From an uncultured Coriobacteriia bacterium (GTDB lineage Bacteria; Actinomycetota; Coriobacteriia; Anaerosomatales; PHET01): a stretch of 64,000 bases of DNA. Positions 46,891 through 64,000 of this stretch are shown piece after piece (the stretch's first letter is position 1; each line of letters begins with the position of its first letter). A model generated the notes under the pieces. It ran no database searches and was not told where the DNA came from. It worked only from the letters and a program-made list of their open reading frames with translations. The DNA lies in assembly GCA_942493275.1 (NCBI GenBank), contig OW818687.1, positions 2,369,918 through 2,433,917 of the forward strand. The letters are read 5' to 3'. The position numbers and the translations under genes are program-made.

Positions 46891-47895
46891 TCACTCGAAG
46901 GCGCGCTGCACGATCAGGGACCTGACGTAGTCGGCGGTCTCTTGAGCACCGGGAGAGCCCATAACGCTCAGGAGCAGGGCCTGAAGAAGTAGCTGGAAGC
47001 CAAGGATCATCGGTACGACGGCAATCATTACCGTGCCTGCAGTCGCCGGTGTGCCCTCAGCGATGGATAGCCACCAGTGGTAGGCACCGAAAGCGACCCC
47101 TGACATCGTCAATAGCACGCCCAATATCGTCAACACGGCAATGGCCCCGAAGTCCGTCAGCAGGTGCTTGCGCCAGAATCGTCTGATTCCGTTGCCTAGA
47201 AGCCGAGGAGGAAAACTCACCGCAACTGAGCCGACACTCACGTAGGACGTCTCACTCCCGTAGCGTGTTGAAACCGGTACATCAACAACACGAGCATTGA
47301 CCGCGTTCAGACGGATCAACATGTCATTCTCGAAGAAGTAGTCCGTCGCAAGTTGGTCCAGATCGAAGAGCCGCAGAAACGGAGCGCGAATGGCCGTGTA
47401 GCCGCACTGCGAATCGAAGACATGCCAATATCCGCTTGCCGACTTCGTCAGCACTGAGAGCAAAGAGTTGCCGAAGCCGCGAACGCGTGGCATGCCCAGC
47501 GTGGCGTTGCGAAAGTAGAATCGATTGCCTTTGGTGTAGTCCGCAATTCCCAACTCAATCGGGGCAACAATCCTCGATAGCTCGTCAGGCGACATCTGGC
47601 CATCGGCGTCCATCTTCACGACACAATCGGCACCCAAATCCAGTGCCATGCGATACCCGCTGACCATGGCCCCGCCGACGCCCCGATTGTGCGGGTGTGT
47701 CACCAGCGCGACACGCTTATCGTCAAGCGATTCGACAACTGAAGCGGTGTCGTCAGTGCTCGCGTCGTTCACGACAATCACATGATCAACCCAGGCAGGT
47801 ATCGCGGCAATAACGCGGCCTATATGCGCGCCTTCATTGAACGCGGGCAGAACGACAGCCGTGGTCAGACTCACTGGCGCCGACGGAGTGTGCAC
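46891..47895 (-). CDS. GT2-family polyprenyl-phosphate glycosyltransferase (GtrB/ArnC/Dpm1-like) with two C-terminal TM helices
   Basis: 334 aa, with VVLPAFNEGAHIG, VVNDASTDDT, NRGVGGA and KMDADGQ (DxD-type) motifs. GTG start with GAGGAG 6 nt upstream. Noticeably AT-richer. Confidence 0.85.
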   Translation of the reverse strand: MHTPSAPVSLTTAVVLPAFNEGAHIGRVIAAIPAWVDHVIVVNDASTDDTASVVESLDDKRVALVTHPHNRGVGGAMVSGYRMALDLGADCVVKMDADGQMSPDELSRIVAPIELGIADYTKGNRFYFRNATLGMPRVRGFGNSLLSVLTKSASGYWHVFDSQCGYTAIRAPFLRLFDLDQLATDYFFENDMLIRLNAVNARVVDVPVSTRYGSETSYVSVGSVAVSFPPRLLGNGIRRFWRKHLLTDFGAIAVLTILGVLLTMSGVAFGAYHWWLSIAEGTPATAGTVMIAVVPMILGFQLLLQALLLSVMGSPGAQETADYVRSLIVQRAFE

Positions 47896-47955: not shown

Positions 47956-48033
47956 ACCACCCAAAACGCCCCTTCGAGTATCTCCGGAGAGATCCCAAAG
48001 GGGCGTTGATGGTTGATGGTGGGCGATAGTGGA
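47956..48033. repeat. Direct repeat copy A: duplicated tRNA-Val 3' end (17 nt, 1 mismatch) plus duplicated tRNA terminator hairpin (distal att-like junction)
   Basis: Copy A is accacCCaaaacgccccttcgagtatctccggagagaTcccaaaggggcgtt...gatggtgggcgataGtgga. Copy B (50632-50711) is accacTGaaaacgccccttcgagtatctccggagagaCcccaaaggggcgtt...gatggtgggcgataCtgga. Confidence 0.8.
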
Positions 48034-48161
48034 CGGTCTTGTTACCCGTTTCTGGAGAGACGCGGGCTAACGTGTGTGTTGCAGGCGTCTGTGCCCCTAG
48101 CGGGTCGATTCAACCCCTTGGCGCTCTGTTCGATGCCTCTGCTGGATGGCTGTGCGCTTGC

Positions 48162-49397
48162 TCAGCCTGCGAGAAATACCGACGGATTGGCAATTCGGAT
48201 GTAGCTCGACATCCGCGGGTCAGAGAACTGATAGACCCCTTTGGAGCAGCGGTGAAGAATCGCTGAGTAGTCATCTGCGACCAGCTTCTGAAGGTAGTTG
48301 TTGAGCGAGCCTTGCGTAATTGGCGCGCCAGTCAGCTTCTCCACACCGGCACGCAACTCCTCCGCGCGAAACTCGGTCTTGTCCAACATGGCCGCGGCCT
48401 CCAATACGTGACGGTACATGTCCGTCCCATAGGAGCGAACCGCGTGTGCGTATTGCCGGAGCAGAGTGCCCTCCGCATCCTCGACAGCCAGGTTCATCGC
48501 CGACTCGAGGCACTTACGATCCACGATGGTCAGGTCGTTTGCTACGGCCTCCTCCGCGCACTTAAGTGCGAGCAGATGGGTGAAGTGTGGGTAGCCGGAG
48601 CTCAGTTTGACAATCTCTTTGGTGACTGTGGCATCGAAATCAAGTCCGACTTTCTCAGCCCCCTCCACGACGATCAGTTCTAGCTCATCCGCATTCATGC
48701 GGGGCAGACGCGTCTCCTTCAGACAGCGTTGGACGGACTCGTGGCCGCCGGTGAGCTCCTCTGCCGTCTGCGCGATGCCCACAACGAGGACCTTGAAGTT
48801 CGAACCGTTGTCGCTAAGAAGCTTGATCAGTTCCGCCAAGTTGCCCTTGTCCCCAGCCGTGGCAATCCGATCCGCTTCGTCGATGTACAGCAAGCCCTCG
48901 CGGTCTTTCAAAGCATCGGCCACGACTGACGGGGAAAATTGCTGCACGGAGTAGGTCTTCTCTGTCGCCCGCTCGCTGCCAATCTCTGCAGCGGCCACGG
49001 GGATCATGAGTCCGCCCTTACCGTGCTCTTTGTGCACCGTCTTCTTCGAAGTGAGGTCGACTTCAATCCCGAAATCGGCGAGCACCGGCGCGAGTACGGT
49101 CTCAAAAGTGTCGCTGGAGTCGCACCGCTTGGTGTACAGCTTGCCACTAATGACCTGCTTGATAAGAAGTTCGGTTGCGACATTTGCCAATGAGCTCTTC
49201 CCCACGCCGCGTTCTCCGTACAGGAGGGCATGCTGACCAGGCGTGTTGATCTGCTCAAGTATCTTGCCGACCTCCTTCTGGCGACCGAAGAAGAGTTCGA
49301 CCGCCTGTACCGGTCTATGGGGCGTGAAGACCTCTCGGACGCCGGACTTTCGGATCTTGGTCTCGCGCGCAATTCCAAACAGGTCAGGCTTGCCCAC
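48162..49397 (-). CDS. AAA+ ATPase (ORC/Cdc6-like or archaeal-ATPase-like) with C-terminal winged-helix-like domain
   Basis: 411 aa. FFGRQKEVGKILEQI...ALLYGERGVGKSSLAN (Walker A), LLYIDEADR (Walker B), and a C-terminal ...LQKLVADDYSAILHRCSKGVYQFSDPRMSSYIRI. GTG start preceded by GGAGGAG. Confidence 0.7.
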   Translation of the reverse strand: MGKPDLFGIARETKIRKSGVREVFTPHRPVQAVELFFGRQKEVGKILEQINTPGQHALLYGERGVGKSSLANVATELLIKQVISGKLYTKRCDSSDTFETVLAPVLADFGIEVDLTSKKTVHKEHGKGGLMIPVAAAEIGSERATEKTYSVQQFSPSVVADALKDREGLLYIDEADRIATAGDKGNLAELIKLLSDNGSNFKVLVVGIAQTAEELTGGHESVQRCLKETRLPRMNADELELIVVEGAEKVGLDFDATVTKEIVKLSSGYPHFTHLLALKCAEEAVANDLTIVDRKCLESAMNLAVEDAEGTLLRQYAHAVRSYGTDMYRHVLEAAAMLDKTEFRAEELRAGVEKLTGAPITQGSLNNYLQKLVADDYSAILHRCSKGVYQFSDPRMSSYIRIANPSVFLAG

Positions 49398-49500
49398 ATC
49401 TCCTCCTATGTCCGTCTAAAGTCGGCGCGCTTAGCTGCGCGAAGTGCCTGACGCTCCTGCACGTCAGGTTTAAGCGCTTGCCAGGCATCGCCTTTGAGTC

Positions 49501-49920
49501 CTAGCCGGCAATATCAAGCGAATCCGGCTGAGATTCATCCAAGTCCATACCGTCATCCGCAGGCATTCGCGCCTTGATTCGCGCGACCACCGACCGAGTC
49601 GATTCCCACGACTTCCACCAGAGCACGAGTAGCACCACGCCCGCGACAGAGGAGACGAGTGTGGCCAGCACGAAGACGTCGAACGTCCGGTTGTCGGAAA
49701 TCGTTGTCGTCTTCAACGCAATCAGAAGAGCAAGCGCCATCGAGAGGAAGAAGATGGCGAAGTTCAAGAAGAGGCTGCCGTTGCCGCCTGTGGTTAGGTC
49801 GTTCAGCTCAGACTCAGTGACTTCGTACAGAGACAGCGAATCAACACGCGCGCGACGCACGCGAACCTCACCCACACCACTGTCATTCGGATTCGTCATC
49901 AGAGATTCTTCTTCAGCCAC
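49501..49920 (-). CDS. Small membrane protein with two TM helices (hypothetical)
   Basis: 139 aa. A ~45-aa N-terminal soluble part, two hydrophobic helices (LFLNFAIFFLSMALALLIAL; VFVLATLVSSVAGVVLLVLWW) and an acidic C-terminal tail. Its start overlaps the upstream 88-aa gene by 22 nt. Confidence 0.6.
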   Translation of the reverse strand: MAEEESLMTNPNDSGVGEVRVRRARVDSLSLYEVTESELNDLTTGGNGSLFLNFAIFFLSMALALLIALKTTTISDNRTFDVFVLATLVSSVAGVVLLVLWWKSWESTRSVVARIKARMPADDGMDLDESQPDSLDIAG

Positions 49921-50165
49921 TCATTCGAACACATGACATTTCGCCACGCTGCAGCGGTACCGGACTTGACCACGAAGAGGCGGCTCCCTTCAGGGAGGAA
50001 CCGCTCGAGGTTGTCGCGTATCGACTTCTGGCCGTCTGCGGACACGATCGCCCACGTGGATTCGGTGACATGCGCCCAAGTGCCATAGGCTTTGATGGCC
50101 GTGAACAGGTCCTCGTAGTCTCCGCCGTCTGCCATGTCGTACGAAATGATGTAGCAGTCCTTCAT
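49899..50165 (-). CDS. Small soluble protein, predicted beta-alpha-beta-beta-alpha-beta (ferredoxin-like, Cas2/VapD-reminiscent) fold; hypothetical
   Basis: 88 aa: MKDCYIISYDMADGGDYEDLFTAIKAYGTWAHVTESTWAIVSADGQKSIRDNLERFLPEGSRLFVVKSG. The alternation of hydrophobic strands and amphipathic helices is read by eye. ATG preceded by GAGAGGAG; a TAATAT box and a GAGACaGTCTC palindrome lie upstream. Confidence 0.55.
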   Translation of the reverse strand: MKDCYIISYDMADGGDYEDLFTAIKAYGTWAHVTESTWAIVSADGQKSIRDNLERFLPEGSRLFVVKSGTAAAWRNVMCSNEWLKKNL

Positions 50166-50631
50166 TGGCGCTCGGAGCTCCTCTCGTGAGACTGTCTCAA
50201 TATTAGCGCAGGAACCCGAAGCCGACTCCCATGCGTATGCCCAACGTCTCTGCGCGGAGCCTGCGGCGTAGACGCCCGTCAGGAGGATTCTACCTTCTGG
50301 CCGTCAGGTTGACGCCAGTACCAGGCCTCGCGCGGCAGTTCCAGTGTCGATCCGTCCGGTCGATTGCTCGTTAACCGCAGACCGCCGTACACGGCCACGG
50401 CAAACAACCAGTGGCACGCGACCGTGAACTCCGATGCCGCGACCCACAGATCGTACTGCTCCAGTGAGCAGGAAACGCAGCGAGCTCGACCCGGTACAGC
50501 AGGTCAGAGATGCAGCGCTCACCTCGTCCCGCGCCCGGATCGCGTTCCAAGAAGCCGCCGATCACGACAAGCGAGAGGTCGTCCAGACCGTACTTTGGAA
50601 CCGGGGTGTGAAGGACGGCGACCTAAGCCCC

Positions 50632-50711
50632 CACCACTGAAAACGCCCCTTCGAGTATCTCCGGAGAGACCCCAAAGGGGCGTTCTGTTACAGATGGTGG
50701 GCGATACTGGA
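50632..50711. repeat. Direct repeat copy B: genuine tRNA-Val 3' end plus its terminator (proximal att-like junction)
   Basis: See copy A. It overlaps tRNA positions 59-75 (50695-50711) and the hairpin at 50641-50683. Confidence 0.8.
50637..50683 (-). terminator. Rho-independent terminator of tRNA-Val
   Basis: The reverse strand reads AACGCCCCTTtggggtctctccggagatactcgAAGGGGCGTTTTC: a 10-bp stem, an inner TCTCCGGAGA palindrome, and a trailing T-run. Confidence 0.75.
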
Positions 50712-50769
50712 TTTGAACCAGTGACTTCCACCGTGTGAAGGTGGCACTCTCCCGCTGAGTTAATCGCCC
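50695..50769 (-). tRNA. tRNA-Val (anticodon CAC), CCA encoded
   Basis: Hand-folded 75-nt cloverleaf. Acceptor GGGCGAT/ATCGCCC, D stem ACTC/GAGT, anticodon stem CCACC/GGTGG with loop TTCACAC, T stem ACTGG/CCAGT with loop TTCAAAT, discriminator A, 3' CCA. Confidence 0.95.
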
Positions 50770-58700: not shown

Positions 58701-61700
58701 CACACGGTCTACTACTACACGGTGGACAATGCGGGCAACGTCGAGCCGACGAAGTCCGCGACGTTCCGCATCAACCGATCCGACCGCTACTACGACGAGG
58801 ACGACAGCCTCATCCTCTATCGCGGCAACTGGAATGACATCAATGGCACCGGCGTCACCAATGGGACCACCGACCCCAACGGCTCGGTCTGGTACTACGT
58901 TCAGGCCGACCGGGTCTGGTACTACGCGGACATAGCTCCGAACGCTGGTATCGCGAGACTGTCAATCGACAACGGCCCCTGGATCGACATCGATCTCTAC
59001 AACGGCTGGCTGCGGTCCAACGAGATTGCCTGGTATTCGGGCGACCTCGAGTACGACTATCACCTGATTCGCATCGAGTACACGGGCCGCAAGAACCCGC
59101 TCTCGAGCGGCTACGGCATCAACCTGGCGCAAGCGCGCGTCCAGGGCACGATGTACCCGGTGCCGGACTCCCAGGCCCCGGTTACCACATCGAACGTCAA
59201 CGGCGACTGGCAGAAGGGCCCGGTGAGCGTGAGCCTCACGTCCACCGACGCCACCACGGGCGTAGCGTCGACCTACTACTCGACGGACGGCTCGAACCCG
59301 TCCCTGACGTACTCCGCTCCGGTGAGCCTGACGAATCAGGGCACTACGGTGTTCAAGTTCTACTCGGTGGACAAACGCGGCAATGCCGAGGCCGTTCACA
59401 CCGAGTACGTGAAGATCGACAATACGGCGCCGGTCACGACAAGCAACGCCGCCAGCGCCTACGTGGGCGCCGCGACGATCACGCTTTCTCCGACTGACTC
59501 CCACTCCGGCGTCGCTTCGACGTTCTGGCGGGTAGACGGCGGGGCGTGGCAGACCGGACTCACCGCCAGCGTGGCCAACGCTCCGGGCGATCACCTGGTC
59601 GAGTGGTACTCAGTAGACGCTCTCGGCAACACCGAGACGGTCAAGAGCGCGTCGGTGGCGATCTGCACACGGTACGAGCAGGATGCGTCGGCGATTGTGT
59701 ATCGCGGGTCCGGATGGAGCACCGCTGGTAACGCGGCACGCTCCGGTGGCAGCTGGGCGTACACGAATGCAGCAGGCTCCTCGGCGTACTTCGTTGTTCA
59801 GGGAACCGGTCTCGATCTTGTGGCGTCGACCGGCCCCACCTACGGAATCGCACGCATCGTCGTTGACGGCGGGACTCCCGTGAACGCCGATCTGTACTCG
59901 TCCACCAACAAGCACCAGATCCGAGTCGCGCAGATTCGCGGTCTCTCAGCAGGTACCCACCGAGTCCGCATCGAGTGGACGGGCACCAAGAACGCCTCAT
60001 CGAGTGGTACGGGAATCGGCATCGACGCGATCGATTCAGTCGGCACGATCACGCCTGACGTGACGGCCCCGGTCTCCACCAGCGACATCGTCGAGGGCTG
60101 GCGCAACACCTCCTCGACCGTCACCCTGAGCGCCATCGACACCGACAGCTACGTGGCGTCGATCAACTATCGGATCAACGGAGGCGCACCCACGGTCTAC
60201 TCGGCACCCTTCTCGGTCACGGCCGAGGGCGACCATACCGTCGAGTTCTGGGCGGTCGATGGCGCGGGCAACGCCGAGACGCCCACCACCAAGCATGTCC
60301 GTATCGACCGCACGCTTCCCGCCGGTTCCCATAACGCCGACAGCGCATGGCAGCAAGGGCCCGTCGACGTCGAGCTCACAGCGACCGACGACCGCTCGGC
60401 CGTGGCTTCGGTGCTCTACAGCACCGACGGCAGCGTGCCGCATCTTGTGTACACCGACGCAATCACCGTGAGCGCTGAGGGTGAGACGACCATCCGCTTC
60501 AGCGTGACCGACAACGCCGGCAACTCGGTCGAGCCTGCGTCCGCACTCGTTCGCGTCGACAACACCGCCCCGACGACCGGCGACAACGCTCCTGACGAGT
60601 GGGTCGGCGGTCCCGTGGACGTGACCCTCACCCCGAGTGACGCGCGGTCCGGCGTCGCGACCACCACCTACACCATCGACGGCGGCGCGCCGCAGACCTA
60701 CACGGGCACGTTCACCCTCTCCGATGAGGGCGACCACACCCTGCAGTACTGGTCGATCGACCATGCGGACAACCTCGAATCCACGACCACGAAGCACGTC
60801 CGGATCGATGACAGCGCGCCGGTGACAACCGACGACGCCCCGGCAGGCTGGGTCGACGGACCGGTCAGCGTCACGCTCGAGGCCACCGACACCGTCTCAG
60901 GCCTTGAGCTCACCGAGTATCGCCTCGACGGCGGTGCGTGGAGCGCCTACGACGCACCCGTCCAGATCAGCGCCGAGGGAACCACCACCCTCGAGTACCG
61001 TTCGGTCGACGTGAAGGGCAACAGCGAGAACATCAACTCCGCGACTGTGAGGATCGACGACAGCGCGCCGGTGACAACCGACGACGCACCCGCAGGCTGG
61101 GTCGACGGACCGGTCAGCGTCACGCTCGAGGCCACCGACACCGTCTCAGGCCTTGAGCTCACCGAGTACCGCCTGAACGGCGGTGCGTGGAGCGCCTACG
61201 ACGCACCCGTCCAGATCAGCGCCGAGGGAACCACCACGCTCGAGTACCGCTCGGTCGACGTGAAGGGCAACACCGAGCAGATCAACACCGCGACTGTGAG
61301 GATCGATGACAGCGCGCCGGTGACAACCGACGACGCCCCGGCAGGCTGGGTCGACGGACCGGTCAGCGTCACGCTCGAGGCGACCGACACCGTCTCAGGC
61401 CTCGAGCTCACCGAGTATCGCCTCGACGGCGGTGCGTGGAGCGCCTACGACGCACCCGTCCAGATCAGCGCCGAGGGAACCACCACCCTCGAGTACCGTT
61501 CGGTCGACGTGAAGGGCAACAGCGAGAACATCAACTCCGCGACTGTGAAGATCGATGACAGCGCGCCGGTGACGTCTGATGACGCACCCGCAGGCTGGGT
61601 CAACGGGCCGGTCAGCGTCACGCTCGAGGCCACCGACGCCGTCTCAGGCCTCGAGCTCACCGAGTACCGTCTCGACGGCGGTGCGTGGAGCGCCTACGAC

Positions 61701-64000
61701 GCACCCGTCCAGATCAGCGCCGAGGGAACCACCACGCTCGAGTACCGTTCGGTCGACGTGAAGGGCAACAGCGAGCAGGTCAACTCCGCGACCGTCACGA
61801 TCGACGACAGCGCCCCGGTGATCTCAGACAACGCCGCCGCACGCTACTTCGGCTCCGCCACCGTCACCCTGACGGTCTCAGACGCGCTCTCGGGTGTGGC
61901 CGATACCGAGTACCGCATCAACGGTGGCACCTGGACGTCGGGCACGAGCCTCACGATCCCCGAGACGGGCATCATCGTTCTCGAGTATCGCTCCACCGAC
62001 GTCGCGGGCAACGTCTCTGACACCACGACCAGAGAGTTCGTGGTGGTCAACCGCACGGAGAACGATGCGGCCATGGTGAGCTACACCGAGGCGTGGACCA
62101 GAAACACGCTCGCGGGCGCCTCGGGCGGCACCTATCAGACCACGACCGCCAACAACGCGACGGCAAACATCTCGTTCAACGGCAGGCGCATCGACCTGAT
62201 CGGCATCAAGGCGCCGTTCCTGGGCATCGCCAACGTCATCGTCGACGGCGGGGCCCAGATACCGGTCGACTGCTACAACCCCACGCAGCTCAACAACACG
62301 GTGGTGTGGAGTTCAGGCGAGCTCTCAGACGGCCCCCACACCCTGCGCGTGGAGTACACCGGCACCAAGAACCCGGCCGCGACAAACACGCGCGTGAGCA
62401 TCGACGCGTTCGACATCGTCGGATCGGCCGCGATGCGCCGCTACGAGCAAGACGACATCCTGGCCGCGTACTACGGGTCGTGGTCGACAAACAACCTGGC
62501 GAGCGCCTCGGGCACCACGTATCAGACCACCATCGCATCCGGCTCGTCGGCAGACATCGCCTTCAACGGCAAGCGCGTCGACCTGATCGGCATCAAGGCG
62601 CCGTTCCTGGGCATCGCCAACGTCATCGTCGACGGCGGGGCCCCGATACCGGTCGACTGCTACAACACCACGCAGCTCAACAACACGGTGCTGTGGAGCT
62701 CAGGCGAGCTCACAGACGGCCGCCACACGGTGCGCGTGGAGTACACCGGCACCAAGAACCCGGCCGCGAGCAACACCCGCGTGAGCATCGACGCGTTCGA
62801 CGTCGTGGGCTACCTCACTCCCCTGCGCTACGAGCAGAACAGTGCCTGGGCGAGCTACGTGGGCACCTGGACCGAGAACACGTACTCCGACGCCTCCGGC
62901 GGCACCTACAAGACCACCGTGGCAGCCGGCTCGGCCGCCAACATCGCCTTCGAGGGAACCGGCATCGACCTGATCGGCATCAAGGCGCCGTTCCTGGGCA
63001 TCGCCAACGTCATCCTCGACGGCGGCGAGCCGATCCCGGTCGACCAGTACGGCGCGGTGCAGAACCACCGCCAGGTCCTGTGGTCGGTGCGCAACCTCCC
63101 CTACGGGCGCCACACCGTCCGCGTCGAGTACACCGGGACCAAGAACCCGGCTTCGACCACGGCGCGCGTGAGCCTCGATGCCTACGACGTCACCGGGCAC
63201 CTCGGCCTGCGGCGCTACGCCGACTCCGACACCAACCTGGCCTACACCGGCACGTGGGCGACCAACTCCTACGCCGGCGCACTCGACAACTCATACCGCA
63301 CCACCATCACGTCAGGGACCGCGGCCCACATCGCCTTCAGCGGCAAGCGCATCGACCTGCTCGGCATCAAGGCGCCGTTCCTGGGCATCGCCAACGTCAT
63401 CATCGACGACGGCGCACCCATCCCGGTGGACTTCTACAACGCCACCCAGCTCGACCGCCAGGTGATCTGGAGCTCGGGCACGCTCACCGACGGCCCGCAC
63501 ACCCTGCGCATCGTGTGCACGGGTACCAAGAACCCCGCGGCCTCCTCGGTCAGAGTCAACCTCGACGGCCTCGACGTGGTCGGAGAGATGCGTGAGTCCG
63601 ATAAGGTCGCTCCTGTCACCGTGGATGACGCGCCCACCGGCTGGAGCAAGGACGACGTCAGCGTGAGGCTCACTGCGACTGACGCCTTGTCGGCTGTTGC
63701 CACTACGTACTACAAGCTCAACGGCGCCACGCCCGCCGTCTACACCACGCCCATCCTCGTCACTGAATCAGGGCTCAATTCGATTGAGTACTGGTCCGTG
63801 GACAGCCGTGGCAACGTCGAGCAGTCTCGTTCAACCTCAGTTCAAATCGACAAGTCGGCACCCGTTGTCAACATCAACGCGCCGAGCGGCTGGGTAGGCT
63901 CGCCGGCCATGGTGACGTTGGATGCGCTGGACAGCCAGAGCGGGCCGGATACCATCCTCTACTCGCTTGACGCATCCGCACCCAGCATTGCCTATGAAGG
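55716..64000 (+). CDS. Giant secreted/cell-surface repeat protein: signal peptide, NHL-repeat beta-propeller, at least 20 Ig-like ~80-aa domains and 6 CBM-like ~129-aa modules; 3' end beyond window
   Basis: Not in the ORF track because it has no stop; no other + strand ORF is listed in its frame. ATG at 55716 with GAAGGGG upstream. The N-terminus is MSRRSVVRSKWTTVTWYAMAVTALVAIAAVIPATAHA/AY. NHL motifs are YVADTGNNRIQ, LTGNNRVAKF, YVADTENSRVVRF and YVADAFNDAVYKM. These are followed by recurring D.TAP.T...GW..GPV.V.L.A.D..SGV....Y..DGG.W units. Confidence 0.9.
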   Translation, partial: MSRRSVVRSKWTTVTWYAMAVTALVAIAAVIPATAHAAYVPTTRDQMIFERYVVQGQGDYPQAITVSPFGDVYYTHSDYWDGLDASNSVHGVTSEGIEFFNVGASDYSQFMWPDGLALTPDGDLVVADTSETGDGDHNRLRMFDTSTGSLIRNVGGPGTGPLGFNMPYGVAVSDSGHVYVADTGNNRIQIIDAATGSFESMWSVPTTVGTSPDGLAFDPDGNLWVVLTGNNRVAKFSPTGTLLDTIDSWQEVDEQGDPTGTGTFWGPKDVAVDHFGVVYVADTENSRVVRFDSEGGWLATLYGADTPEAAFSYPTDVDCDVFGNLYVADAFNDAVYKMSLVMADPDTVPPVTTSNVTSVWQKGPVNVTLSATDASLSVEATYYSIDGSEPSVLYTGPFQITAEGTTQLQYYSVDTAENSELVKSQDVRIDNTNPAAAISLNQVTYGYETTVTMSATDSLSGVKNIVYILDNGTPKFYTGQFKVMGIGLHFIDYWSVDNAGNVEPFKHAWCSIEAPDANPPVSYSDAPSGWVNQNVSVEITATDDVSGVDDIYYSRDGSNPTVPYTGPLTFNAEGINVLKYHAIDLRGNAETVHTDNIKIDKSVPTASSDAVASYVDSATINFQASDSVSGVLDFVYRFNDGAWQHGYTFNTTQWGNHRVTWYATDQAGNTSSQRTDYFTVLQPDNEPPITGDDIPSSWVRGPVSINFDAHDVISSVAATYYSFDGSYPTNVYDPPLTYNVEGEHEVKFYSEDSRGNKEPVTTKTVRIDNTPPVSTSDVEEFYMGTAHITFTASDSLSSVNYLYYRLDGGTWTQGRSGDVLTTSAIGNHTLEYYAVDTPGNRETTQTANFRLVPPDTEPPVTTMIAPTGWVKGPVQVEFSAYDTTSTITGTYYSLTGGTPISAYTGPITVFAEGTTYITYRSVDEWSNWEDIKSGEVKIDNTAPLTSTDATSSYVDQAIVTFSPSDPLSGAKTTYYKIDGGAWQQGSSAYVTGYYYHTVYYYTVDNAGNVEPTKSATFRINRSDRYYDEDDSLILYRGNWNDINGTGVTNGTTDPNGSVWYYVQADRVWYYADIAPNAGIARLSIDNGPWIDIDLYNGWLRSNEIAWYSGDLEYDYHLIRIEYTGRKNPLSSGYGINLAQARVQGTMYPVPDSQAPVTTSNVNGDWQKGPVSVSLTSTDATTGVASTYYSTDGSNPSLTYSAPVSLTNQGTTVFKFYSVDKRGNAEAVHTEYVKIDNTAPVTTSNAASAYVGAATITLSPTDSHSGVASTFWRVDGGAWQTGLTASVANAPGDHLVEWYSVDALGNTETVKSASVAICTRYEQDASAIVYRGSGWSTAGNAARSGGSWAYTNAAGSSAYFVVQGTGLDLVASTGPTYGIARIVVDGGTPVNADLYSSTNKHQIRVAQIRGLSAGTHRVRIEWTGTKNASSSGTGIGIDAIDSVGTITPDVTAPVSTSDIVEGWRNTSSTVTLSAIDTDSYVASINYRINGGAPTVYSAPFSVTAEGDHTVEFWAVDGAGNAETPTTKHVRIDRTLPAGSHNADSAWQQGPVDVELTATDDRSAVASVLYSTDGSVPHLVYTDAITVSAEGETTIRFSVTDNAGNSVEPASALVRVDNTAPTTGDNAPDEWVGGPVDVTLTPSDARSGVATTTYTIDGGAPQTYTGTFTLSDEGDHTLQYWSIDHADNLESTTTKHVRIDDSAPVTTDDAPAGWVDGPVSVTLEATDTVSGLELTEYRLDGGAWSAYDAPVQISAEGTTTLEYRSVDVKGNSENINSATVRIDDSAPVTTDDAPAGWVDGPVSVTLEATDTVSGLELTEYRLNGGAWSAYDAPVQISAEGTTTLEYRSVDVKGNTEQINTATVRIDDSAPVTTDDAPAGWVDGPVSVTLEATDTVSGLELTEYRLDGGAWSAYDAPVQISAEGTTTLEYRSVDVKGNSENINSATVKIDDSAPVTSDDAPAGWVNGPVSVTLEATDAVSGLELTEYRLDGGAWSAYDAPVQISAEGTTTLEYRSVDVKGNSEQVNSATVTIDDSAPVISDNAAARYFGSATVTLTVSDALSGVADTEYRINGGTWTSGTSLTIPETGIIVLEYRSTDVAGNVSDTTTREFVVVNRTENDAAMVSYTEAWTRNTLAGASGGTYQTTTANNATANISFNGRRIDLIGIKAPFLGIANVIVDGGAQIPVDCYNPTQLNNTVVWSSGELSDGPHTLRVEYTGTKNPAATNTRVSIDAFDIVGSAAMRRYEQDDILAAYYGSWSTNNLASASGTTYQTTIASGSSADIAFNGKRVDLIGIKAPFLGIANVIVDGGAPIPVDCYNTTQLNNTVLWSSGELTDGRHTVRVEYTGTKNPAASNTRVSIDAFDVVGYLTPLRYEQNSAWASYVGTWTENTYSDASGGTYKTTVAAGSAANIAFEGTGIDLIGIKAPFLGIANVILDGGEPIPVDQYGAVQNHRQVLWSVRNLPYGRHTVRVEYTGTKNPASTTARVSLDAYDVTGHLGLRRYADSDTNLAYTGTWATNSYAGALDNSYRTTITSGTAAHIAFSGKRIDLLGIKAPFLGIANVIIDDGAPIPVDFYNATQLDRQVIWSSGTLTDGPHTLRIVCTGTKNPAASSVRVNLDGLDVVGEMRESDKVAPVTVDDAPTGWSKDDVSVRLTATDALSAVATTYYKLNGATPAVYTTPILVTESGLNSIEYWSVDSRGNVEQSRSTSVQIDKSAPVVNINAPSGWVGSPAMVTLDALDSQSGPDTILYSLDASAPSIAYE
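60807..61802 (+). repeat. Four tandem 249-bp (83-aa) near-identical coding repeats inside the giant gene
   Basis: Unit starts at 60807, 61056, 61305 and 61554; the next, diverged domain starts at 61803. By my reading units 1 and 3 differ at only 3 of 249 nt, and unit 2 differs at about a dozen positions. Confidence 0.9.
62052..63599 (+). repeat. Four tandem 387-bp (129-aa) CBM-like module repeats inside the giant gene
   Basis: The anchor tcgacctg...ggcatcaaggcgccgttcctgggcatcgccaacgtcatc recurs at 62191, 62578, 62965 and 63352, a period of 387. Each unit reads RYEQD..Y.G.W......ASGG.Y.TT...G..A.I.F.G..IDLIGIKAPFLGIANVI.DGG.PIPVD.Y......V.WSSG.L.DG.HT.RVEYTGTKNPA...RVS.DA.DV.G. Confidence 0.85.

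Follow-up and report, generated by a model that had tools for sequence, protein, structure and literature searches.

Two independently inherited gene modules, a Cas2/GhoS-fold and membrane protein pair and a solo AAA+ ATPase, lie side by side in a tRNA-Val islet of an uncultured Coriobacteriia bacterium

Three adjacent genes occupy a small islet at a tRNA-Val gene within a 64,000-nt stretch of contig OW818687.1 from an uncultured Coriobacteriia bacterium (assembly GCA_942493275.1, positions 2,369,918 to 2,433,917); this whole stretch is referred to below as the window. They encode an 88-amino-acid (aa) protein of alpha/beta fold, a membrane protein with two transmembrane (TM) helices, termed the 2-TM protein, and a 411-aa AAA+ ATPase. 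An initial annotation had grouped the three as one cassette, a candidate defence or abortive-infection (Abi) module. The layout that it described, with co-oriented open reading frames (ORFs) of 88, 139 and 411 aa and a 103-nt spacer containing a hairpin, is present in full on the minus strand:

50165..49899, minus strand: ORF of the 88-aa protein, upstream gene of the pair
49920..49501, minus strand: ORF of the 2-TM protein, downstream gene of the pair, of 139 aa (GTG at 49920) or 132 aa (ATG at 49899)
49398-49500: spacer of 103 nt between the 2-TM gene and the ATPase gene
49447..49468, minus strand: hairpin CCTGACG-N8-CGTCAGG inside the spacer, with an 8-pair stem in the RNA fold
49397..48162, minus strand: ORF of the 411-aa ATPase

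The grouping itself does not stand. The region consists of two independently inherited, horizontally acquired modules placed side by side, the 88-aa/2-TM gene pair and the solo ATPase gene, and is not one system, because the trio is absent from all homologous loci sampled and each module is widespread without the other.

The evidence comes from three sets of homologous loci. The ATPase-seeded set comprised 79 genomic loci, which were taken from the homologue alignment, cover many bacterial phyla as well as some archaea and were inspected over 6 kb on each side; the 88-aa-seeded set comprised 78 metagenomic loci, of which 70 were evaluable for the downstream gene; and the 2-TM-seeded set comprised 11 loci, with 7 homologues looked up. 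No homologue of the 88-aa or the 2-TM protein was encoded near the ATPase at any of the 79 genomic loci and, reciprocally, no ATPase homologue lay near the pair at any of the 78 88-aa-seeded or 11 2-TM-seeded loci. The closest relatives behave in the same way: the closest placed relatives of the ATPase, at 73% (locus L162) and 65% identity, have no 88-aa or 2-TM homologue nearby, and the closest relatives of the 88-aa gene (75-76% identity; L084 and L167) are without an ATPase. The ATPase loci of the actinophages Kevin1 and Cashline and of P2-like prophages also lack 88-aa and 2-TM homologues. Altogether, the trio occurs in 0 of more than 170 homologous loci (79 + 4 ATPase-seeded, 78 88-aa-seeded and 11 2-TM-seeded) and in none of the phage and plasmid copies inspected. 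Absence of the trio elsewhere, which the initial annotation had itself named as grounds for abandoning the cassette, is therefore what the neighbourhoods show, and the pair alone is conserved. No gene of any kind is conserved next to the ATPase gene in its 79 loci, and no membrane partner of any family recurs there (TM segments in 8/65 upstream and 8/65 downstream ORFs).

Although the combination lacks conservation in other genomes, the three proteins might still cooperate in this lineage in a single defence or Abi system: the ATPase would be the sensor or switch, the 2-TM protein would be the effector and the 88-aa protein would serve as an adaptor. The three genes are co-oriented and adjacent, share a GC content of 57-58% and sit in a single islet, and there is a weak similarity (74% over 38 nt) between the sequences upstream of the pair and upstream of the ATPase gene. 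However, the zero count above, the wide distribution of each module alone and the closest relatives of each module, which all lack the other, argue against such a system, as do the ATPase gene's own strong Shine-Dalgarno sequence (AGGAGGAG), the 103-nt spacer that separates it from the pair, and the lack of a recurring membrane partner; we regard a local three-gene system as highly improbable. The 38-nt similarity is a direct repeat (family D2) with copies at 49454-49491, upstream of the ATPase gene, and at 50294-50331, upstream of the 88-aa gene. The motif CGTCAGG is present in both copies, which may be instances of one promoter or operator element or may resemble each other by chance.

The spacer hairpin, to which attention had been drawn earlier, is real as a sequence but is no more than chance would provide, and it is not conserved in homologous loci. 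Perfect 7-bp stems with loops of 3-10 nt number 55 in the window vs 52 +/- 10 in shuffled sequences, with about 0.09 expected per 103 nt; the RNA fold of the spacer has z = -1.9; and a comparable hairpin lies 3' of the 2-TM gene in only 10/52 homologous loci. No U-tract follows the hairpin at 49447-49468, which is also not among the hits of the terminator scan.

In contrast to the trio, the pair is held together both by its junction and by its conservation. Translational coupling had been proposed from a 22-nt overlap of the 88-aa and 2-TM genes. This length applies only to the longest ORF, with its GTG start; in the NCBI gene call (P0241), the 2-TM protein has 132 aa and starts at the ATG at 49899, giving the junction CTC-TGA-TG with a 1-nt UGAUG stop/start overlap. 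Tight coupling of the two genes holds whichever start is used, and junctions in homologous pair loci mostly range from -59 to +13 nt. A 2-TM homologue (28-55% identity) lies directly 3' of the 88-aa gene in 55/70 evaluable loci, usually overlapping it or at a distance of <=13 nt, and no third conserved gene was found beside the pair. Viewed from the 2-TM gene, 6/7 homologues looked up have an 88-aa gene directly upstream, and the seventh follows a gene for an unrelated 93-aa DUF1883 protein. In this copy (L181/L182, 2723-3372), which lies between pfk and hisB, the 2-TM homologue (47% identity) overlaps the upstream gene by 4 nt, and it departs from the 88-aa-paired copies in its N-terminal cytoplasmic motif, a weak hint at interaction at the protein level. 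A 2-TM gene without a small coupled upstream partner was never seen among these seven.

The 88-aa protein belongs to a large family, phrog_1090 in PHROG (1.8e-18). At 50% identity the family comprises 3,156 clusters, of which 557 match at E <= 1e-10, and its members are nearly all stand-alone proteins of about 88 aa. The alpha/beta fold proposed earlier is borne out by an AlphaFold2 (AF2) model (predicted local distance difference test score, pLDDT, 91.2) with the order b-a-b-b-a-b, a ferredoxin-like fold of the Cas2 type. Among structures in the PDB, Foldseek ranks GhoS (YjdK, 2llz) first (E = 2.5e-3, probability 1.00), followed by Cas2 structures; no VapD structure is among the top 50 hits. 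At the level of profiles, hhalign aligns the family with Escherichia coli GhoS (E = 4.8e-5, probability 68%, 53 columns), pairing beta-1 'YVVSFD' with 'YIISYD' and, in addition, a beta2-beta3-alpha2 stretch. A profile search of the PDB finds the Cas2 protein 7mi4_E as its best match, at 0.005, and YjdK only at E = 1.4. Residue D10, at the end of beta-1, is invariant in the family. Affiliation with Cas2 proper is not reached: the protein scores 12.6 bits with Pfam Cas2, below the gathering score of 23.8, and PADLOC Cas2 models match it weakly (0.002-0.05). The window contains no cas1, no CRISPR array and no 88-aa paralogue, and Cas1 is not one of the families that recur often in the 120 proteins encoded around homologous loci.

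The 2-TM protein likewise represents a defined family. Both TM helices, as first predicted for the protein itself, are conserved across 47 homologues, together with an N-terminal cytoplasmic motif (R-x-R-V-D-S-L-x-L-Y-E-V-T-E-x-E-L) and a basic juxtamembrane tail (W..R..IK.R). The family matches no curated family above threshold. Weak matches below threshold are to Holin-X, an actinobacterial holin family (21/47 members), and to SLATT (3/47), and the matches of the protein to PADLOC models are noise. No plasmid homologues of the 2-TM protein were found.

Genes of the 88-aa family are also found apart from the 2-TM gene. Solo copies are present in 28 phage records and on plasmids, and those in phages lie in lysogeny or moron regions of temperate Staphylococcus, Mannheimia, Clostridium and Enterococcus phages; the 2-TM gene is missing from the phage copies inspected. 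A representative copy in a Staphylococcus phage StB20-like genome (L003, 2992-3255) is annotated as 'CRISPR-associated endonuclease Cas2', with neither cas1 nor an array. Such labels on many temperate-phage copies are probably a systematic mis-annotation, since the Cas2 score is below the cut-off, cas1 and arrays are missing and the usual partner is a 2-TM protein. Other copies have other partners. On ColE1-type small plasmids, a PD-T4-5/AbiD-like gene, the 88-aa gene and a gene for a 574-aa PIN_8 protein follow one another in that order (Klebsiella pC51_006, L176, 1715-4504; Rahnella pHW114B, L175, 1739-4615, where the PIN_8 gene is split in two ORFs), in what looks like a compact plasmid-borne defence or toxin-antitoxin (TA) cluster. 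On four gut metagenome contigs (L116, L118, L120 and L156; 1237-6410), genes for uncharacterised proteins of 227, 306 and 363 aa are followed by the 88-aa homologue, a 207-aa protein and a 310-aa multi-TM protein, and the operon ends at a dTDP-sugar epimerase gene; the uncharacterised proteins have no Pfam or PADLOC match.

The pair itself occurs in what is typical accessory genome. Its neighbours include ThsB-TIR proteins, Gp49/HigB-type toxins, GmrSD, the insertion sequences (IS) IS200, IS66 and IS110, and a tyrosine integrase, with ThsB-type TIR proteins flanking two of the pair loci. On three contigs (L128, L130 and L159; 468-4673), the pair lies directly 3' of genes for a 5-hmdU DNA kinase, a radical-SAM/SPASM enzyme and a 502-aa protein of no assigned family; because this is a phage-type cluster for thymidine hypermodification, the contigs probably represent phages in which the pair is a moron. 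At a pair locus other than the two with flanking ThsB-type TIR proteins, the gene immediately 3' of the 76%-identical pair (L167/L168, 4768-5949) encodes a 393-aa protein with weak similarity to TIR effectors and nucleoside 2-deoxyribosyltransferases (PADLOC 1.8e-6).

The two genes thus differ in their behaviour: the 2-TM gene is never alone, and the 88-aa gene occurs solo or with several partners, an asymmetry that antitoxin/toxin logic predicts. Taken with the position of the putative antitoxin gene in front, a fold shared with GhoS and Cas2 and a holin-like partner, it leads us to read the pair as a TA-like or Abi module. The polarity might instead be reversed, with the 88-aa protein as a VapD/Cas2-like nuclease toxin and the 2-TM protein as an immunity factor, anchor or export partner. 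Its fold is that of the Cas2/VapD superfamily, the invariant Asp at the end of beta-1 occupies the position of the catalytic Asp of Cas2 and VapD (PMC12737573), and VapD-like proteins are toxins with varied antitoxins that can also stand alone (PMC11980593). However, GhoS and Cas2, not VapD, are represented in the top 50 Foldseek hits; the downstream partners (2-TM and PIN_8 proteins) resemble effectors and not antitoxins; the 88-aa gene is often solo in phages and plasmids with no candidate antitoxin near it; the 2-TM gene, besides never being alone, is found once with a different small upstream protein; and a small gene in first position fits the usual antitoxin-then-toxin layout. Reversed polarity therefore appears quite unlikely.

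The phage copies suggest a further explanation for the pair, namely a phage-derived membrane function, holin-like or for superinfection exclusion, with the 88-aa protein as its small cytoplasmic regulator. The 88-aa family is a PHROG with members in the lysogeny and moron regions of the four phage groups named above, the pair follows the 5-hmdU DNA kinase and radical-SAM genes on the phage-like contigs, and 21/47 members of the 2-TM family match Holin-X weakly. Most pair loci, however, are without phage structural or lysis genes and lie amid housekeeping, IS, TA or defence genes; no endolysin gene is adjacent, and the inspected phage copies do not include the 2-TM gene. An origin of this kind is distinctly improbable as an account of the pair.

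The second module is the ATPase. Its NTPase module matches Pfam nSTAND1 (PF20703; 1.5e-13, 51.6 bits against a gathering score of 27.1), and the protein matches phrog_6841 over its full length (3.5e-71). The Walker A (GERGVGKSS) and Walker B (LLYIDEADR) motifs that had been noted earlier are present, and their core residues G61, K67, D173 and E174 are invariant in 54 sequences. The AF2 model (pLDDT 88) shows an AAA+ core, a helical lid and the expected C-terminal winged helix (H-H-H-b-b, residues 327-391), with a long beta-hairpin insertion in the core at residues 115-149, the tip of which is disordered. Foldseek finds its best matches, at about 1e-10, in SSO1545, PAB2304 and Cdc6/Orc1, with RFC and RuvB also among the best; against 1fnn, 2qby and 2v1u, E ranges from 2e-10 to 9e-9 over about 420 columns. 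Pfam, PADLOC and Foldseek thus agree with the initial assignment of the protein to ORC/Cdc6-like or archaeal-type ATPases, not to the ATPases of Septu, Gabija, PARIS or Lamassu, and the trio, which had not been assignable to a named system from sequence alone, has no convincing model in PADLOC-DB v2 for any of its three proteins.

Several relatives of the ATPase lie in defence-related surroundings. The 73%-identical relative is located between an AAA_15/21 ATPase gene and genes for GmrSD and Mrr, and the 65%-identical relative adjoins genes for an HNH nuclease and BrxA, BrxB and BrxC (BREX). The homologue in mycobacteriophage Kevin1, gp30, is an orpham in the central variable region of this cluster N phage, a region that its authors flagged for prophage-mediated defence. 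In a Salmonella P2-like element, the interval from gpA to gpQ contains a 34%-identical homologue as its one sizeable gene, and this homologue is likewise the sole cargo of the interval in 4/5,426 E. coli genomes, under the name 'nSTAND1 domain-containing NTPase' from the Prokaryotic Genome Annotation Pipeline. Experiments support the P2 gpA-gpQ interval, where old and tin are located, as a defence hotspot (Rousset et al. 2022; PMC9122126); the ATPase homologue is not among the systems named or tested in that study or in a 2026 follow-up preprint. From these contexts, the ATPase is a candidate single-gene defence factor, a role to which we give about even odds, and a natural guess would be an ATP-dependent switch that binds nucleic acid.

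Both modules share an islet of about 2.7 kb (48034-50632), which holds all three genes and is bounded by direct repeats that duplicate the end of a tRNA gene:

50695..50769, minus strand: tRNA-Val(CAC) (ARAGORN; Rfam tRNA model, 67 bits)
50633..50711: attachment-site (att)-like repeat on the tRNA side, made up of the last ~19 nt of tRNA-Val and a 52-nt downstream palindromic hairpin (repeat families D1 and D5; pairwise alignment)
50166..50632: segment of 467 nt between the tRNA-side repeat and the 88-aa gene, GC 63% (host-like) (ORF list, Rfam)
47956..48033: second att-like repeat, which duplicates the 3' end of the tRNA plus the hairpin and marks the distal end of the islet (repeat families; pairwise alignment)

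The repeats are 78 nt long, with ~94% identity in two blocks that are separated by 8 divergent nt, and the three genes have a GC content of 57-58% vs 65% for the whole window. Direct repeats that duplicate a tRNA 3' end on either side of inserted DNA are a hallmark of tRNA-targeted islands, and the earlier description of a tRNA-linked island is upheld: tRNA-Val is the integration target of the islet, which was inserted at the tRNA 3' end and is horizontally acquired. An integrase gene of its own, also characteristic of such islands, is missing, as no integrase or integrase remnant was found in the islet or in the 64-kb window (ORF list; tblastn with phage integrases). In the 467-nt segment there is neither a convincing ORF nor a remnant of an integrase, and the Rfam scan, which matched the tRNA alone, found nothing there. 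Either the island has decayed or the element is mobilised in trans. Just beyond the distal repeat, a glycosyltransferase-like gene (46891-47895) has a GC content of 58%, the same as the islet genes, and the envelope-polysaccharide genes that flank the islet may also be horizontally acquired. Elsewhere in the window there are two tandem repeat arrays, at 60802-61821 (249 nt x 4.1, 93% match) and 62112-63535 (387 nt x 3.7, 76% match), which probably encode the repeat domains of one large surface protein.

An islet without an integrase makes it imaginable that the ATPase serves some other maintenance function, as a replication, partition or mobility factor of its carrier element (an ORC/Cdc6-like initiator or loader) and not in defence. 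Its structural matches to Cdc6/Orc1, RFC and RuvB are in keeping with such a role, as is a distant homologue (28% identity) beside parAB on Yersinia pestis pMT1 (L179, 4959-6350). Against it, the NCBIfam orc1/cdc6 model (TIGR02928) scores 20.8 vs a cut-off of 181.3 bits, and RuvB and RFC models are likewise far below theirs; the P2-like copies lie in an accessory hotspot, not among replication genes, and are rare in E. coli, as counted above; the Kevin1 copy is an orpham; and many copies are single genes beside housekeeping genes, with no element around them. A role in replication, partition or mobility is unlikely for this family. The pMT1/pFra homologue is conserved, also lies near a RelE/Phd TA pair and appears in 63 Yersinia plasmid records.

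The reading that we favour as moderately probable is that of two modules of separate function, the pair as a TA-like or Abi module with a membrane effector, and the ATPase as a solo factor directed against phages or other mobile genetic elements (MGEs). The defence or Abi role that had been suggested for the trio is thus not retained for the three genes as one system, but the genomic contexts make it plausible for each module on its own. The first module would be a translationally coupled bicistron, expressing the 88-aa protein of Cas2/GhoS fold and then the 2-TM protein. The 2-TM protein would act as a membrane-damaging effector and the 88-aa protein as its cognate neutraliser, by one of two routes: it could cleave the effector mRNA, as GhoS does with ghoT (type V logic), or it could bind the conserved cytoplasmic N-terminal segment of the effector (type II logic). 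Loss of the 88-aa protein with loss of the element, or its inhibition during phage infection, would then free the effector, depolarise the cell and arrest growth. The second module, a solo AAA+ ATPase of nSTAND1, ORC/Cdc6 or archaeal type with its own ribosome-binding site, may act as a single-gene anti-phage or anti-MGE factor through an ATP-dependent switch that binds nucleic acid.

A broader version of the type V route can be formulated, in which the 88-aa family comprises GhoS-related RNases that serve as general type V antitoxins or regulators, cleaving the mRNAs of swappable effectors (2-TM, PIN_8 and others), and in which the solo phage copies are antitoxin mimics for counter-defence. 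We hold this to be unlikely; if true, type V TA would no longer be a lone curiosity of enterobacteria but a large, modular class of relevance to phages.

Several observations weigh against the two-module reading as formulated here. For the 88-aa protein, the link to GhoS is distant: the TM-score is 0.47 to GhoS vs 0.57-0.65 to Cas2, with a Foldseek E of only ~3e-3 for GhoS, and in the hhalign alignment R28, reported as the most important residue of GhoS (PMC4010927), falls in a 14-residue insertion that is absent from the 88-aa family. Since stand-alone VapD toxins exist, the solo 88-aa genes are no proof that the protein is non-toxic. For the 2-TM protein, the Holin-X and SLATT matches could reflect composition alone; hhalign gives its family (alignment A4) a probability of 0.4% with GhoT, that is, no homology; and, at 132-139 aa and with a conserved cytoplasmic N-terminal domain, it differs clearly from the non-homologous, 57-aa GhoT. 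The statement that this gene is never alone comes from a 2-TM-seeded sample that is small (7 proteins) and overlaps the 88-aa-seeded one. For the ATPase, immediate neighbours in the 79 loci are mostly housekeeping or unrelated genes and few are defence genes; the pMT1 homologue adjoins partition genes; no recognisable effector domain is present; and the best PADLOC-DB v2 match is PDC-S59 (2.6e-5), a candidate family with similarity at the AAA level only, followed by mad8 and IetA at ~1e-3.

The locus illustrates that adjacency inside one small islet does not make a system, and correcting an attractive grouping brings out two uncharacterised, widely distributed modules. Both are small and have natural homologues in E. 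coli, Klebsiella and Salmonella. With the pair, the GhoST-like design in which a Cas2-fold protein is coupled to a membrane effector would reach far outside the enterobacteria, and the pair swaps partners on both sides, with 2-TM, PIN_8 or other effectors downstream and 88-aa or DUF1883 proteins upstream. If the ATPase protects against phages, its mechanism would be new.

Among known systems, CRISPR-associated Cas2 has the same fold as the 88-aa protein (TM-scores of 0.55-0.65 to several structures), and the two also share the beta-1 'Y-D' motif with its invariant Asp; the best PDB sequence match is 7mi4_E, and some database entries of the 88-aa family are named Cas2. The differences lie in the score below the Pfam Cas2 gathering threshold and in the surroundings, which are the 2-TM gene on one side and a non-coding stretch and tRNA on the other, with neither cas1 nor a CRISPR array. 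The VapD toxins of the type II TA systems VapXD, VapYD and VapWD belong to the same Cas2/VapD superfamily and are likewise small solo or paired genes on mobile elements (PMC11980593). Their partners are VapX or VapY SH3 proteins or VapW VapD-like proteins, whereas those of the 88-aa protein are downstream membrane or PIN_8 proteins; membrane partners and GhoS do not appear in a recent survey of TA systems of the VapD-like kind (PMC11980593).

The closest parallel in architecture is the type V system GhoS/GhoT, in which GhoS is a Cas2-homologous endoribonuclease antitoxin and the toxin GhoT damages the membrane (PMC4010927, PMC7438911). In both cases a small gene of Cas2-type ferredoxin fold comes first and a 2-TM membrane protein gene, putatively toxic in the present pair, lies directly downstream; GhoS is also the top Foldseek match of the 88-aa protein, with beta-1 and beta2-beta3-alpha2 aligned. 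Apart from the differences in toxin and in the R28 insertion given above, the genes of the pair overlap or abut, whereas the 57-aa ghoT of E. coli starts 27 nt downstream of ghoS on the same strand, and members of the 88-aa family are spread over many phyla and phages and occur with changing partners. The pair is a variant of the GhoST-type arrangement with partner swapping, and no PADLOC model covers it.

For the ATPase, the nSTAND1 domain was defined in counter-invader systems (PMC8195603), and STAND conflict proteins typically combine an N-terminal effector or adaptor, an NTPase and C-terminal sensor repeats (PMC8195603, PMC10907252). The ATPase shares with these proteins (Avs/AVAST-like and NLR-like) an nSTAND1 module above threshold and intact Walker A and B motifs, but at 411 aa it comprises a 35-aa N-terminal tail, the AAA+ core, the lid and the winged helix, without C-terminal repeats or a lectin sensor. 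Because effector and sensor domains are both absent, it is a minimal form of the nSTAND1/STAND type and not a canonical STAND conflict protein. In overall structure it is closest to the archaeal ATPase_2 proteins SSO1545 and PAB2304 and to Orc1/Cdc6, which are its best full-length matches and share the succession of AAA+ core, lid and winged helix; identity to them is only 11-18%, and the ATPase is found in accessory hotspots and defence islands, not at replication origins. In location, finally, it resembles the cargo of the P2 gpA-gpQ interval, as its 34%-identical homologue occupies exactly that locus in P2-like prophages of both Salmonella and E. coli.

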